Virus record (IMG/VR): IMGVR_UViG_2698536618_000007
Source of the DNA: a virus
Taxonomy: Duplodnaviria > Heunggongvirae > Uroviricota > Caudoviricetes
Length of the DNA: 6,207 nt
Direction: 5' to 3' (one strand)
Part shown: one piece after another, positions 3,165 to 4,797 of the stretch
How positions within the stretch are numbered: position 1 is the stretch's first letter
How the letters are laid out: each line of letters opens with the position of its first letter
Notes under the pieces: model-generated
What the model was told of the DNA's origin: nothing
Database searches by the model: none
Seen by the model: only the letters and a program-made list of their open reading frames with translations
Program-made: the position numbers and the translations under genes

Positions 3165-3704
3165 TCATATCGCCCCCAGCATGGTAGTAACCATCGCCAT
3201 CAATGGACCAGCCAGATCTGGGTCCACACGAAACATCGACACAATACCTTCACTAATTTCCTTCAGTTTCTGGTGGCGTGGTGCGTTGAGAATGACAGCC
3301 TGTTTTGCCTCACTGAGTTCCTTTTCCATTTCAGCCAACCTAGCCATGAAGCTATCCTGCTCAACCAGGTAACCGCGATATTCCAGCGGTAGTACCGCCA
3401 GAATTGCCGGGGTCAGTTCACGCACGTTATTTCGGTATTTTTCAGAATCGAATTTGTTATCGAGGAAGCGGAACAGCTTCTGGCGTGCACGGCTGACATC
3501 ATCAGGGAAATCGATGGTGCCGCCGCCCTGCTCCCGATACTCATTCACAATGAGTGTGGCAACGACATCCTGATTATCTACAGCCGACCAGGCGCGGACG
3601 GCATCACGGATTTTTTCGTGGCCTGGCACCTGTTTTGTTTGAGAACGATTTATCACCGCAGTCGGGCTAAATCCGCTAGTCTGTTGGTATGTAAGTGGTT
3701 GCAT
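3165..3704 (-). CDS. YdaT-family protein (Rac-prophage YdaT-like; occupies the cII position), 179 aa
   Basis: Lies between the cro-like gene and O. Motifs NEYREQGGG and LTPAILAVLPLEYR resemble E. coli YdaT as recalled. A strong RBS AAGGAG lies 6 nt upstream of the ATG at 3704. The stop overlaps the upstream alternative ATG of O (ATGA at 3165-3168). Confidence 0.75.
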   Translation of the reverse strand: MQPLTYQQTSGFSPTAVINRSQTKQVPGHEKIRDAVRAWSAVDNQDVVATLIVNEYREQGGGTIDFPDDVSRARQKLFRFLDNKFDSEKYRNNVRELTPAILAVLPLEYRGYLVEQDSFMARLAEMEKELSEAKQAVILNAPRHQKLKEISEGIVSMFRVDPDLAGPLMAMVTTMLGAI

Positions 3705-3748
3705 AATTGCTCCTTTAGTTTGAATTGACTGTTAAGTTGATTGCTTAT

Positions 3749-3760
3749 TGTTAAAGAGCG
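3749..3760 (-). promoter_or_regulatory. boxA-like element (rrn/nut-type GCTCTTTAACAA) just downstream of the cro-like gene
   Basis: The minus-strand sequence reads CGCTCTTTAACAA, matching the boxA consensus (lambda nut boxA CGCTCTTA; rrn boxA TGCTCTTTAACAA). It sits 13 nt after the cro stop, the position of nutR in lambda. No obvious boxB hairpin follows. Confidence 0.35.
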
Positions 3761-3772
3761 TGAAATGGAAAT

Positions 3773-4003
3773 TTAAGCTGCGTTCTTTTCGGTGTGTGGA
3801 AACAACTTCGGAAGATCCGGGCGAATCTGGTATGCCTTCACTACTCCACCAGTAGCCGTAACAATGCTGCCGACATGTTCAGGGGATACCTTTGCTTTGT
3901 TGTGAAGCCACTTATAGACGGCCTGCTGTGAAACTTCGCAAGCAGCGCCCAGTTTCTTTTGTGAACCAACGATATTGATCGCTGTTTTGATAGCTGGGTT
4001 CAT
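3773..4003 (-). CDS. Cro-like / YdaS-family HTH regulator (76 aa)
   Basis: Small HTH protein (GSQKKLGAACEVSQQAVYKWL) transcribed divergently from the repressor. RBS GGAGG lies 6 nt upstream of the ATG at 4003. Confidence 0.85.
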   Translation of the reverse strand: MNPAIKTAINIVGSQKKLGAACEVSQQAVYKWLHNKAKVSPEHVGSIVTATGGVVKAYQIRPDLPKLFPHTEKNAA

Positions 4004-4107
4004 AACAACCTCCGTGGTTAATTTGAATCAAGATTAAAACTATGGTTGTTTTTAGTCAACAACCATTTTCGTTTGATGAAATAAAACCTTGGTTGTACAT
4101 TTGGACT
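4004..4107. promoter_or_regulatory. Divergent operator/promoter region (oR-like) with a 25-bp palindromic operator and candidate pR and pRM
   Basis: Perfect 9-bp inverted repeat ATGGTTGTT (4042-4050) / AACAACCAT (4058-4066). Further GGTTGT/AACAAC half-sites at 4004-4010 and 4091-4096. Candidate pR on the minus strand: -35 TTGACT (4059..4054) inside the palindrome, 17-bp spacer, -10 TAATCT (4036..4031). Candidate pRM on the + strand: TTGATG (4073-4078), 17 bp, TACATT (4096-4101), which would give a near-leaderless repressor mRNA. Confidence 0.55.
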
Positions 4108-4797
4108 ATGAAAACAACACTCTCAGAAAGACTTAAAGAAGCCAGATTAGCGCGAGGCCTTACACAAAAGGCGCTTGGGGATTTGGTCGGGGTTAGCCAG
4201 GCTGCTATTCAGAAAATCGAAACAGGGAAAGCTAATCAAACAACTAAAATCGTGGAGATCGCGAACGCTTTGGGTGTGCGCGCAGAATGGTTATCTTCTG
4301 GCGTTGGAAATATGTCAGACAGTACAGTGCAACCAATACAATCAACTGTCAGCCATTCCAAATACTTCAAGATTGACGTTCTTGATATAGAAGTCAGTGC
4401 TGGGCCGGGAGTCATCAACCGTGAGTTTGTAGAAGTTCTACGCTCGGTTGAGTACTCGTTTGACGATGCTCGTCACATGTTCGATGGTAGGAAGGCGGAA
4501 AATATCCGCATCATTAACGTGCGTGGTGACAGCATGTCAGGAACGATCGAACCAGGTGATCTGCTGTTCGTTGATATCACAGTTAAATCTTTCGACGGTG
4601 ATGGTATCTATGCGTTTCTGTACGACGACACAGCCCATGTAAAGCGCCTGCAAATGATGAAGGATAAGCTGCTGGTCATCTCTGATAACAAAAGCTACTC
4701 ACCGTGGGACCCGATCGAGAAAGACGAGATGAACCGGGTGTTCATCTTCGGTAAGGTTATTGGGAGCATGCCGCAGACATATAGGAAGCATGGGTAG
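4108..4797 (+). CDS. CI-like prophage repressor (N-terminal HTH, C-terminal S24 LexA-type autopeptidase domain), 229 aa from the Met at 4108
   Basis: HTH LTQKALGDLVGVSQAAIQKIETGK. C-terminal domain with GDSMSGTIEPGDLLFVD and a downstream Lys (HVKRLQ), typical of the Ser-Lys dyad in CI/LexA. The ORF-track start at 4042 lies inside the operator palindrome, so the 4108 start is preferred. Confidence 0.85.
   Translation: MKTTLSERLKEARLARGLTQKALGDLVGVSQAAIQKIETGKANQTTKIVEIANALGVRAEWLSSGVGNMSDSTVQPIQSTVSHSKYFKIDVLDIEVSAGPGVINREFVEVLRSVEYSFDDARHMFDGRKAENIRIINVRGDSMSGTIEPGDLLFVDITVKSFDGDGIYAFLYDDTAHVKRLQMMKDKLLVISDNKSYSPWDPIEKDEMNRVFIFGKVIGSMPQTYRKHG

Follow-up and report, generated by a model that had tools for sequence, protein, structure and literature searches.

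What is the function of the 179-aa protein encoded at the cII position of this lambdoid early region, and to which type of phage does the surrounding switch belong? The original prediction, made for the whole 6,207-nt stretch of DNA analysed here (the window), described Rac-type switch genes joined to lambda-type replication and Red genes, and suggested that a YdaT-family protein might serve as a cII analogue controlling lysogeny. We consider it highly probable that this early region represents an immunity switch belonging to a DLP12-type (Bievrevirus-like) lambdoid E. coli prophage, in which a YdaT/phi80-type activator replaces lambda CII. This substitution is already described, and prophages of this type are common in E. 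coli; the sole new point here is a predicted binding site and promoter (3639-3682) located inside the activator gene.

The gene order of the window is cI, cro, cII, O and P. The ORF of the cII analogue, a predicted YdaT-family, phi80-CII-type transcription factor (179 aa; 3165-3704, minus strand), lies between a gene for a 76-aa Cro analogue of the YdaS/Cro family (PF15943; 3773-4003, minus strand) and the replication initiator gene O (PF04492; 2149-3168, minus strand), which it overlaps, and it is divergent from the CI repressor ORF (251 aa, with HTH_3 and S24 peptidase domains; 4042-4797, plus strand). This is the slot of cII, and both this placement and the positions of the three ORFs agree with the original prediction. 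The same order, with a cro-like gene, a cII-like gene and replication genes next to a divergent repressor, is found in phi80, HK639, mEp237, Tritos and a Klebsiella phage. Further along the minus strand are the genes for the replication protein P (1451-2152; profile match and lambda comparison) and Ren (1152-1454; PHROGs match and lambda comparison), while the plus strand encodes Kil, an FtsZ inhibitor of the Rac KilR/phi80 type (5393-5599; NCBIfam, PHROG 294), Gam (5675-5971; profile match and lambda comparison) and the N-terminal 77 aa of Bet (5977-6207; lambda comparison). All early-region ORFs of the window are intact. There is no N gene between cI and kil, no cIII-like gene was seen, and a terminator scan identified an intrinsic-terminator-like hairpin with a T-run 3′ of cI (4919-4945, plus strand). 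An Rfam scan of the whole window returned nothing but one sub-threshold chance match, to rliD.

Nucleotide homology to lambda is limited to positions 1179-2615 (93.7% identity) and 5593-6207 (97.4%). At the protein level, P is 97.0%, Ren 90.2% (92 aa), Gam 96.9% and the first 77 aa of Bet 100% identical to their lambda counterparts, which is the near-identity that had been predicted for these four. O is 67% identical to lambda O, the nucleotide homology ending inside the gene at 2615 and leaving the N-terminal part unmatched. The comparison with lambda gave no match for cI, cro, the YdaT-like gene or kil, the product of the latter matching NCBIfam PRK11354 (1.4e-15, below the model cut-off) and PHROG 294 and being 34% identical to KilR. 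Since the lambda homology is confined to patches, with the switch genes and kil unmatched, the mosaic is real and of the ordinary lambdoid kind. Complete E. coli genomes that carry at least 80% of the window number 783, and positions 126-6207 are 99.1% identical to phage PhiR34_1, whose record names E. coli K-12 MG1655 as host. DLP12 of E. coli K-12 is the same element, located at argU, and window positions 126-1762 (ybcK, emrE, ren and part of P) are 99.6-99.7% identical to it; K-12 DLP12, however, has lost all that lies between P and exo, switch included, whereas the window retains the region. In the window, the early region of DLP12 is thus preserved intact.

PF06254 (YdaT_toxin) is the sole Pfam match of the 179-aa protein (E = 8.5e-30; 103.5 bits, with a gathering score of 21), the PHROGs match is PHROG 163, 'CII-like transcriptional activator' (3.9e-67), and 120 of 120 homologues among the matches listed also carry PF06254. 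An AF2 model (mean pLDDT 77, about 82-93 over most of residues 31-110) has the POU-like helix-turn-helix (HTH) followed by a long helix that is seen in the YdaT structure 8bt1. Residues 1-27 are predicted to be disordered, residues from about 29 to 113 make up the HTH DNA-binding domain, and the C-terminal part consists of long helices. A PDB sequence search matched 8bt1 and 3c4r, and a Foldseek search of the PDB with the model returned the same two YdaT entries, 8bt1 being titled 'YdaT transcription regulator, CII functional analog', at the top (probability 1.00, TM 0.66-0.71 normalised to target, rmsd 3.1-3.7 over about 117-121 aligned columns), with nothing significant beyond them (next E > 0.5). 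Profile search and structure prediction, the checks named in the original prediction, therefore bear out the YdaT-like and Cro-like families (PF15943 for the latter, see below) rather than placing the 179-aa protein in an unrelated one. The recognition-helix Arg is R79 (in QKLFRFLDN), which aligns with the FRW of 8bt1 and is invariant in 33 homologues; the corresponding Arg of helix alpha3 is Arg60 in CP-933P YdaT and R57 in Rac YdaT.

The 179-aa protein is 100% identical to the annotated cII product of the inducible phage PhiR34_1, and exactly this protein is annotated as 'cII' in sequenced phages, although RefSeq names it 'toxin YdaT domain-containing protein'. It is 66% identical over all 179 aa to the 'CII decision making protein' of phi80, but only 26-35% identical to the two characterised YdaT proteins, and a tblastn search of the lambda early region gave no match to lambda CII. 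The protein is very probably a functional analogue, not a homologue, of lambda CII; the proposal to that effect is supported, but it had already been established through the precedent of homologues and the annotated phage cII genes. The YdaT/phi80-CII family is conserved across Enterobacteriaceae at both the DNA and the protein level. The start codon of cII, ATG 3704, is preceded by a strong AAGGAG. We rejected an alternative initiation at GTG codon 26, by which the box described below would remain untranslated, given this AAGGAG and the lack of a Shine-Dalgarno sequence before codon 26; the N-terminal region, open and in frame in 60 related loci, also argues against it.

The 76-aa protein matches PF15943 (YdaS_toxin, E = 4.1e-17) and P22_Cro (8e-5), as well as the Cro proteins 3bd1 and 5w8y in the PDB by sequence. 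The repressor has the N-terminal HTH and C-terminal S24 peptidase of a CI/LexA-type protein (HTH_3, 6.5e-13; Peptidase_S24, 1.5e-18; PHROG 4 and PHROG 6201), and its translation shows GDSM and VKRL motifs. RefSeq places its start at 4108, giving 229 aa, which is likelier than 4042 because the operators overlap 4042-4096. Three TGGTTGT half-sites lie in the OR region (4004-4107), at 4043-4049, 4059-4065 (inverted) and 4090-4096, where pR and pRM are presumed to be located. This 7-mer occurs five times in the window (1.04 expected), including three copies in the OR region and one in the OL/pL region (5037-5113, plus strand), which contains operator-like repeats complementary to OR and a TATAAT at 5103-5108; inverted repeats link 4034-4077 to 5037-5113. 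For the N-less leader 3′ of pL (5109-5300), an antiterminator RNA similar to HK022 put was considered and rejected, its folding energy being no better than that of shuffled sequences (z = -0.08). Homology to phages D2, Perceval and PhiR68_2 ends at 3705 and restarts at 4241, delimiting an immunity-specific module (3706-4240) composed of cro, the operators and the DNA-binding N-terminus of CI. Perceval and D2, which are inducible and belong to the genus Bievrevirus like PhiR34_1, thus differ from the window in their immunity block. Heteroimmune sister phages swap cro, the operators and the CI N-terminus while keeping the same cII. The junction of the immunity block falls exactly at the cII ATG, and therefore the cII gene and any promoter inside it would travel together, whatever the immunity type.

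Such a promoter is suggested by a comparative alignment of related loci, and not by a scan with the published consensus, which pointed to a predicted YdaT box, TTGAGAACGATTTATCAC (3639-3656, plus strand), inside cII codons 17-22 (GTGATAAATCGTTCTCAA on the coding strand), followed by a predicted pRE-type -10 hexamer, TAGTCT (3677-3682, plus strand). Together the two elements are antisense to cII codons 8-22 and point at cro and cI. At the sequence level, the window has, in this predicted element, the inverted-repeat box at the gene's 5′ end that is typical of YdaT. Eight of the 12 specified positions (counted by eye) match the published YdaT consensus TTGATT-N6-AATCAA (PMC9986795, PMC11879457); with four mismatches, the candidate falls below a consensus scan allowing at most three, which gave 10 matches against 5.1 expected, none of them meaningfully placed. 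The pattern NTGAT-N8-NTCAN is present at the box position in 51 of the 60 related loci (0.019 expected per 120 nt), and the conserved core across loci is TGA-N9-ATCA. The TG in codon 17 is fully conserved (100%) even though M, L or V is encoded, codon 21 specifies six amino acids but has T as its third base in 100% of cases, and the mean third-position conservation is 0.81 for the box codons versus 0.58 for the whole gene. A TAnnnT hexamer exactly 20 nt from the box is kept in 43 of 44 non-redundant relatives. In the codon-level comparison, the T, A and T are invariant (100%) even though eight different amino acids are specified by codon 9. The composite pattern of box and -10 element occurs once in the window (0.01 expected) and, in 59 of 77 loci, is present at the corresponding position. 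The same layout is also found in Rac, the Klebsiella phage, mEp237 and phi80, and with a 21-nt distance (read by eye) in the CP-933P-type phage Tritos.

With the box centre near -41.5 relative to the predicted start and no good -35, the geometry resembles that of lambda pRE. Conservation alone is what points to the promoter, because a scan for sigma-70 consensus sequences on the plus strand (3100-5700) revealed none, as expected for an activator-dependent promoter. The conservation of codons 1-22 could in part reflect a constraint on the peptide or on translation initiation. Another candidate box, in the cro-cII spacer (3705-3772, with TTGATT at 3737), was rejected because this spacer is unrelated in heteroimmune phages whose cII is the same. 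A PWM scan of a 30-kb prophage segment for a second box/-10 site, analogous to pI or paQ, gave none beyond the range of shuffled sequences: other sites scored 9.8 bits at best, versus shuffle maxima of up to 12.1.

The location of the box within the gene's own 5′ coding region would also suit an autoregulatory or roadblock operator, repressing pR read-through or the translation of the gene itself, but a roadblock would not need a hexamer, and an antisense TAnnnT at an invariant 20 nt is what 43 of the 44 relatives show. The hexamer is moreover found in the Rac, phi80 and Klebsiella types, where this stretch is not homologous coding sequence. Published work does lend this reading some weight, in that CP-933P YdaT has been called a 'repressor', with its box placed downstream of the predicted PRE933P (PMC9986795), and that PracR4, some 190 bp away from the box, has been named as the activated promoter of Rac (PMC11879457), which would translate here into a YdaT-family regulator acting on a distant promoter in cro. 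The position of PracR4, however, came from a promoter-prediction program, and in the passages of PMC11879457 consulted the activation test mutated the box only, the mutation abolishing reverse-strand activation while leaving ydaT expression unchanged. Furthermore, the heteroimmune sister phages replace cro while keeping the cII gene and its box, which would separate the activator from a promoter located in cro. An operator function as the main role of the box, or activation at a distance, is thus improbable.

A toxin-antitoxin role for the 179-aa and 76-aa proteins, as a YdaT/YdaS pair, instead of one as switch regulators is very unlikely, despite the Pfam names 'Bacterial toxin ydaT' and 'Bacterial toxin YdaS' and the RefSeq name given above. 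Rac YdaT is toxic when overexpressed (PMC11879457), but so is overproduced lambda CII (PMC5917428), and the toxin-antitoxin assignment came from a prediction tool, a 2010 study having found no evidence for it (PMC5917428). CP-933P YdaS and YdaT were shown not to be such a pair (PMC8630535), the fold of the 179-aa protein is that of an HTH DNA-binding domain, and the two genes occupy the cro and cII slots of a plaque-forming phage. Equally hard to credit is a decayed remnant of a cryptic prophage, with a cII-like gene now devoid of a role: K-12 DLP12 is defective, with the whole region gone, and many O157 copies carry IS insertions, but the intact ORFs of the window, its near-identity over 6.1 kb to PhiR34_1 with its MG1655 host, and the conservation of the family across Enterobacteriaceae all speak against decay.

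The preferred reading, a lysogeny-establishment activator acting at a promoter next to its box, can be described as follows. After infection, transcription from pR would cover cro, the cII analogue, O, P and ren. As a presumed tetramer, the form taken by its solved homologue, the 179-aa protein would then bind the imperfect inverted repeat at 3639-3656 in its own codons 17-22, the box centre lying about 41.5 bp upstream of the predicted start, over a poor -35, and would thereby activate a weak promoter on the opposite strand, with TAGTCT as its -10. The resulting pRE-type transcript would run antisense through cro and then OR into cI, ending near the terminator at 4919-4945, and would supply the first burst of repressor while opposing cro, as lambda CII does at pRE. 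On this reading, the switch consists of an SOS-cleavable CI, a YdaS-family Cro and a YdaT-family activator of lysogeny establishment. The present analysis established the family, the fold, the gene order, the identity to an annotated phage cII and the DNA-level conservation of the box and -10 element. We infer that the 179-aa protein binds DNA and activates a reverse promoter and repressor expression like its homologues, and likewise which exact promoter it uses. For the CP-933P and Rac homologues, published work has demonstrated that they bind DNA, form tetramers and activate both a reverse promoter and repressor expression (PMC8630535, PMC9986795, PMC11879457).

A broader proposal, which we regard as evenly poised, is that pRE in the whole YdaT/phi80-CII family is a class-II-type promoter adjoining the box (centre near -41.5; 20-nt, rarely 21-nt, spacer; TAnnnT), located in the 179-aa subfamily within the first 22 codons of the activator. 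If so, this would explain why the N-terminal extension is conserved yet disordered. Both published promoter placements, in Rac and in CP-933P, differ from the box-adjacent position proposed here, and the assignments to PracR4 and PRE933P would in that case need revision. The same grammar predicts a further target in Rac, a near-consensus box, TTGATTATTAATAATCAG, followed after 20 nt by TACAAT; this predicted site ends some 10 nt short of where the RalA antitoxin sRNA is annotated to start.

In hundreds of E. coli genomes, the 'toxin YdaT domain-containing protein' should be understood as a lysogeny activator of the cII type found in DLP12/phi80-like phages, and the window shows in its intact state the switch that K-12 DLP12 has lost. 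Current understanding of lysogeny control is unchanged. If confirmed, the predicted promoter would mean that lambda and the YdaT-type phages converged, through unrelated proteins, on an establishment promoter hidden in the activator's own 5′ coding region, and it would refine the published promoter maps of Rac and CP-933P.

Lambda CII is an unstable activator encoded after cro, whose site lies in its own 5′ coding region, straddling a poor -35, and pRE fires antisense through cro into cI. The cII of the window shares this position and would share this logic, but its sequence and family are unrelated. Lambda CII binds a direct repeat, TTGC-N6-TTGC, as an asymmetric tetramer, whereas YdaT-type proteins bind inverted repeats as 222-symmetric tetramers (PMC9986795). 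CP-933P YdaT activates PRE933P (PMC8630535), and its structure has been published as a 'functional equivalent of CII' (PMC9986795; PDB 8bt1). It shares with the 179-aa protein the Pfam family, the fold of a DNA-binding domain plus long helix, the recognition-helix Arg and an inverted-repeat, TGAT...ATCA-type box at the 5′ end of the gene (PMC9986795). It is only 26% identical, however, and the window protein has an additional disordered N-terminus of 27 residues, which holds the box within the ORF, and about 40 additional C-terminal residues. The CP-933P repressor is PaaR2, which comes with a toxin-antitoxin pair, versus an S24-type CI in the window.

Rac YdaT raises racR expression 29-fold through its box (PMC11879457), and YdaS and YdaT were named as Cro and cII homologues by Casjens in 2003 (cited in PMC5917428). 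Rac has a YdaS/YdaT-family pair in the cro and cII positions, the same type of kil, and, as in the window, a YdaT box followed after 20 nt by a -10-like element (TATGAT). The Rac box overlaps the ATG, however, whereas that of the window lies at codons 17-22, and the replication genes (ydaU, ydaV) and RecET of Rac are not lambda-type. YdaT (35% over 96 aa) and YdaS (30%) are only distantly similar to their window counterparts, and RacR is unrelated to the S24-type CI, BLASTP between the two showing no similarity. The label 'Rac-type switch' of the original prediction thus goes too far and is not supported, although the YdaS and YdaT Pfam families are shared. The closest classical relative is the CII of phi80 (NC_021190 gp48), with homologues in mEp237, HK225 and HK639. 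Its gene lies in the same slot, with the cro-like gene 30 on one side and the O-like gene 15 on the other, and no pRE is annotated in record NC_021190. The phi80 gene shares the embedded box, the 20-nt spacer and a TATTGT element at +48 of the ORF. Phage phi80 differs in that its cI and cro are its own, that it carries an N gene and nutL, and that an oop-like M3 RNA follows cII. Because the 179-aa protein is 66% identical to phi80 CII, as opposed to 35% and 30% identity between the window and Rac proteins, and because RacR is unrelated, the sequence comparison indicates that the window module is of the phi80/DLP12 type and is kin to Rac at the family level only.

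The gene in the cII position (3165-3704, minus strand) encodes a 179-aa protein which, as the original prediction held, belongs to the YdaT family (PF06254, YdaT_toxin, 8.5e-30), and the 76-aa product of the cro analogue (3773-4003, minus strand), described as Cro/YdaS-like, matched PF15943 (YdaS_toxin, 4.1e-17) in the same type of profile search. Members of the 179-180-aa subfamily occur widely in Enterobacteriaceae, with 705 clusters from the protein search and 66 genomic loci (one genome per species). With 33 homologues as input, AlphaFold2 gave a model of mean pLDDT 77 that was helical beyond residue 27, residues 1-27 being probably disordered (pLDDT < 50). 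Structure prediction had been proposed as a check; when the model was compared with the PDB using Foldseek, only 3c4r and 8bt1 were meaningful matches, with a probability of 1.00, TM scores of 0.66-0.71 normalised to the target and 26% identity, the latter entry being entitled "YdaT transcription regulator (CII functional analog)". The recognition-helix arginine corresponds to R79, which is invariant in the homologue alignment.

The proposal that this protein is a cII analogue is correct in substance and was already known, both from published data on homologues and from PHROGs and GenBank, where the protein itself is annotated as CII-type. YdaS and YdaT were regarded as Cro and cII homologues by Casjens in 2003, as recounted by Jobling (PMC5917428); CP-933P YdaT activates a pRE-type promoter, and homology to phi80 CII has been remarked (Jurenas et al., PMC8630535); and the YdaT structure has been solved and its box, TTGATT-N6-AATCAA, mapped (Prolic-Kalinsek et al., PMC9986795). 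For Rac, Wons et al. (PMC11879457) report a box, ATGATTCATGAAAATCAA, mapped across the ydaT start codon, and a reverse promoter activated 29-fold in a box-dependent manner, with racR expression increased. These papers make the cII-analogue role an established family property. Switches of this type are common and already annotated, homologues have been characterised by experiment, and the sole addition made here is a predicted box and promoter embedded in the gene, a small testable refinement.

ORF listing and profile searches revealed a complete lambdoid early region, with ren (1152-1454), P (1451-2152) and O (2149-3168) on the minus strand, and kil (5393-5599), gam (5675-5971) and the 5' portion only of bet (from 5977) on the plus strand, as is the HTH and S24-peptidase repressor gene cI (4042 or 4108 to 4797; profile searches). 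Beyond ren lie emrE, ylcJ and a truncated ybcK (minus strand). Window positions 126-6207 are 100% identical to a prophage of E. coli O39:NM F8704-2 located at tRNA-Arg and adjoining intD, which is the DLP12 locus; the match to the cryptic K-12 prophage DLP12 is restricted to 126-1762, the switch having been lost. Among 5426 complete E. coli genomes, 783 contain 80% or more of the window, and the inducible phage PhiR34_1 is 99.1% identical over 126-6207, its three switch genes being annotated as cI, Cro and cII. The ybcK gene encodes a 508-aa serine recombinase in relatives; here homology to it breaks off at position 125, and the 136-aa local ORF (87-497) is an N-terminal resolvase fragment with an unrelated tail. 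Since matches in other genomes are split in two pieces over ~9 kb, an insertion or rearrangement has disrupted ybcK in the source strain.

P, Ren, Gam and the Bet fragment are indeed nearly lambda-identical (97%, 90%, 97% and 100%, respectively). Nucleotide homology to lambda is confined to 1179-2615 and 5593-6207, the left junction lying inside O, the N-terminal part of which has no lambda match, and no sequence-level lambda counterpart was found for cI, cro, the cII-slot gene or kil. The latter is of the Rac KilR/phi80 type, not lambda kil (its product matches the NCBIfam 'FtsZ inhibitor protein' below cut-off), and because lambda homology restarts at 5593 the right-hand mosaic junction lies between kil and gam. 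Up to position 3705, which coincides exactly with the ATG of the cII-slot gene, the sister phages Perceval and D2 (genus Bievrevirus) and PhiR68_2 match the window at 96.7-98.4% nucleotide identity. Beyond it they diverge completely over a stretch made up of cro, the operators and the portion of cI for the N-terminal region, identity returning to ~90% from 4241. The immunity-specific block thus corresponds to 3706-4240, and the cII analogue, being outside it, is common to heteroimmune phages. The 'Rac-type' label originally given to the switch holds only at the family level: identity to the Rac proteins is 35% over 96 residues for YdaT, 30% for YdaS and 34% for KilR, and the repressor shows no similarity to RacR, which lacks its S24 autocleavage domain. 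The closest classical relative of the 179-aa protein is phi80 CII (66% identity, full length), and the CII-annotated proteins of mEp237 (67%) and HK225/HK639 (52%) are also related, so that 'phi80/DLP12-type YdaT-family' is a better label.

Three TGGTTGT half-sites, at 4043, 4059 (inverted) and 4090, form a cluster, and a related copy lies at 5043, within what is presumed to be the OL/pL region. The longer reading of cI, from 4042, runs over a 25-bp perfect-stem palindrome, ATGGTTGTTTTTAGTCAACAACCAT, as well as the third TGGTTGT (4090). The palindrome and TGGTTGT sites within 4042-4107 look like OR operators, which favours the RefSeq start; cI probably begins at ATG 4108, giving 229 aa. Between cI and kil (4798-5392), an interval laid out likewise in PhiR34_1, there is no N-like antiterminator gene, no nutL and no plus-strand ORF of at least 40 aa, and tblastn with phi80 N gave no match. 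From pL, the left operon seems to lead directly into kil-gam-bet by way of a ~280-nt leader, which folds no better than shuffled sequence (z = -0.08). The ~60 non-coding nt just upstream of kil (5272-5332) are 94% identical to HK225 and 83-84% to phi80, where the counterpart lies just downstream of tL1A, the terminator after the N gene. These ~60 nt may be a shared regulatory element; in Rac, an sRNA (KilS) is found upstream of kilR. The cII-analogue stop overlaps the O start (ATGA, 3165-3168), leaving no intergenic room for an oop/M3-type antisense RNA. In phi80 and HK639, an RNA of this kind lies between cII and the replication gene.

Alignment of 60 genomic relatives revealed a conserved motif at nucleotides +49 to +66 of the cII-slot ORF, NTGAT-N8-NTCAN on the coding strand, which is present in 51 of the 60 loci, against an expectation of 0.019 per 120 nt. 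In the window, this predicted YdaT box is the inverted repeat at 3639-3656 (coding strand GTGATAAATCGTTCTCAA, plus strand TTGAGAACGATTTATCAC); by our own count, no more than 8 of the 12 positions specified in the published consensus agree. Codon 17 encodes Met, Leu or Val among relatives, yet is always NTG, and codon 21 encodes six amino acids with a third base that is always T; together with the excess of third-position conservation in codons 16-21 (mean 0.81, against 0.58 across the gene), this indicates conservation at the DNA level. Read antisense, the 18-bp box is followed after exactly 20 nt by a TAnnnT hexamer in 43 of 44 non-redundant relatives (variants include TATTGT, TACTCT and TATCAT); in the window this hexamer is the predicted -10 TAGTCT (3677-3682, antisense to the gene). 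The three defining bases of the hexamer are 100% conserved even though codon 9, which overlaps it, specifies eight different amino acids. The window contains a single match to the composite pattern TGA-N9-ATCA-N21-TAnnnT, with 0.01 expected, and 59 of 77 loci examined have one at the homologous position. If transcription starts ~7 nt past the hexamer, the box would be centred at about -41.5, with a poor -35 position (roughly CACCGC), the arrangement found in activator-dependent class II promoters. We infer this box and promoter from conservation; a search of the 30-kb prophage segment for further sites (pI or paQ analogues) found none above shuffles.

In the literature the activated promoter is assigned to other positions, namely PracR4, ~190 bp from the box, in Rac and a site upstream of the box in CP-933P. 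As far as the available text of PMC11879457 goes, PracR4 was located by a prediction program and the activation assay mutated the box only; these results seem consistent with a promoter next to the box. In the 14-kb Rac segment of E. coli K-12 (NC_000913 1412000-1426000), the only other match to the composite pattern, at segment positions 1504-1547 (plus strand), is a near-consensus YdaT box, TTGATTATTAATAATCAG, followed after 20 nt by TACAAT; it stops ~10 nt short of position 1557, where the antitoxin sRNA RalA is annotated to begin, and Rac YdaT may therefore activate ralA. The available text of PMC11879457 contains no mention of this element. At the ydaT locus itself, Rac has TTGATTTTCATGAATCAT, 20 nt and then TATGAT; a Klebsiella phage has the same layout with TAGCAT, and the CP-933P-type phage Tritos has TAGTTT at 21 nt, the hexamer in all three being outside the homologous coding sequence. 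The same layout is found in phi80, with TATTGT. Lambda pRE is situated in the 5' part of cII and directs antisense transcription across cro and on into cI. The predicted promoter mirrors lambda pRE in both position and antisense direction, and a terminator-like hairpin is found after cI, at 4919-4945.
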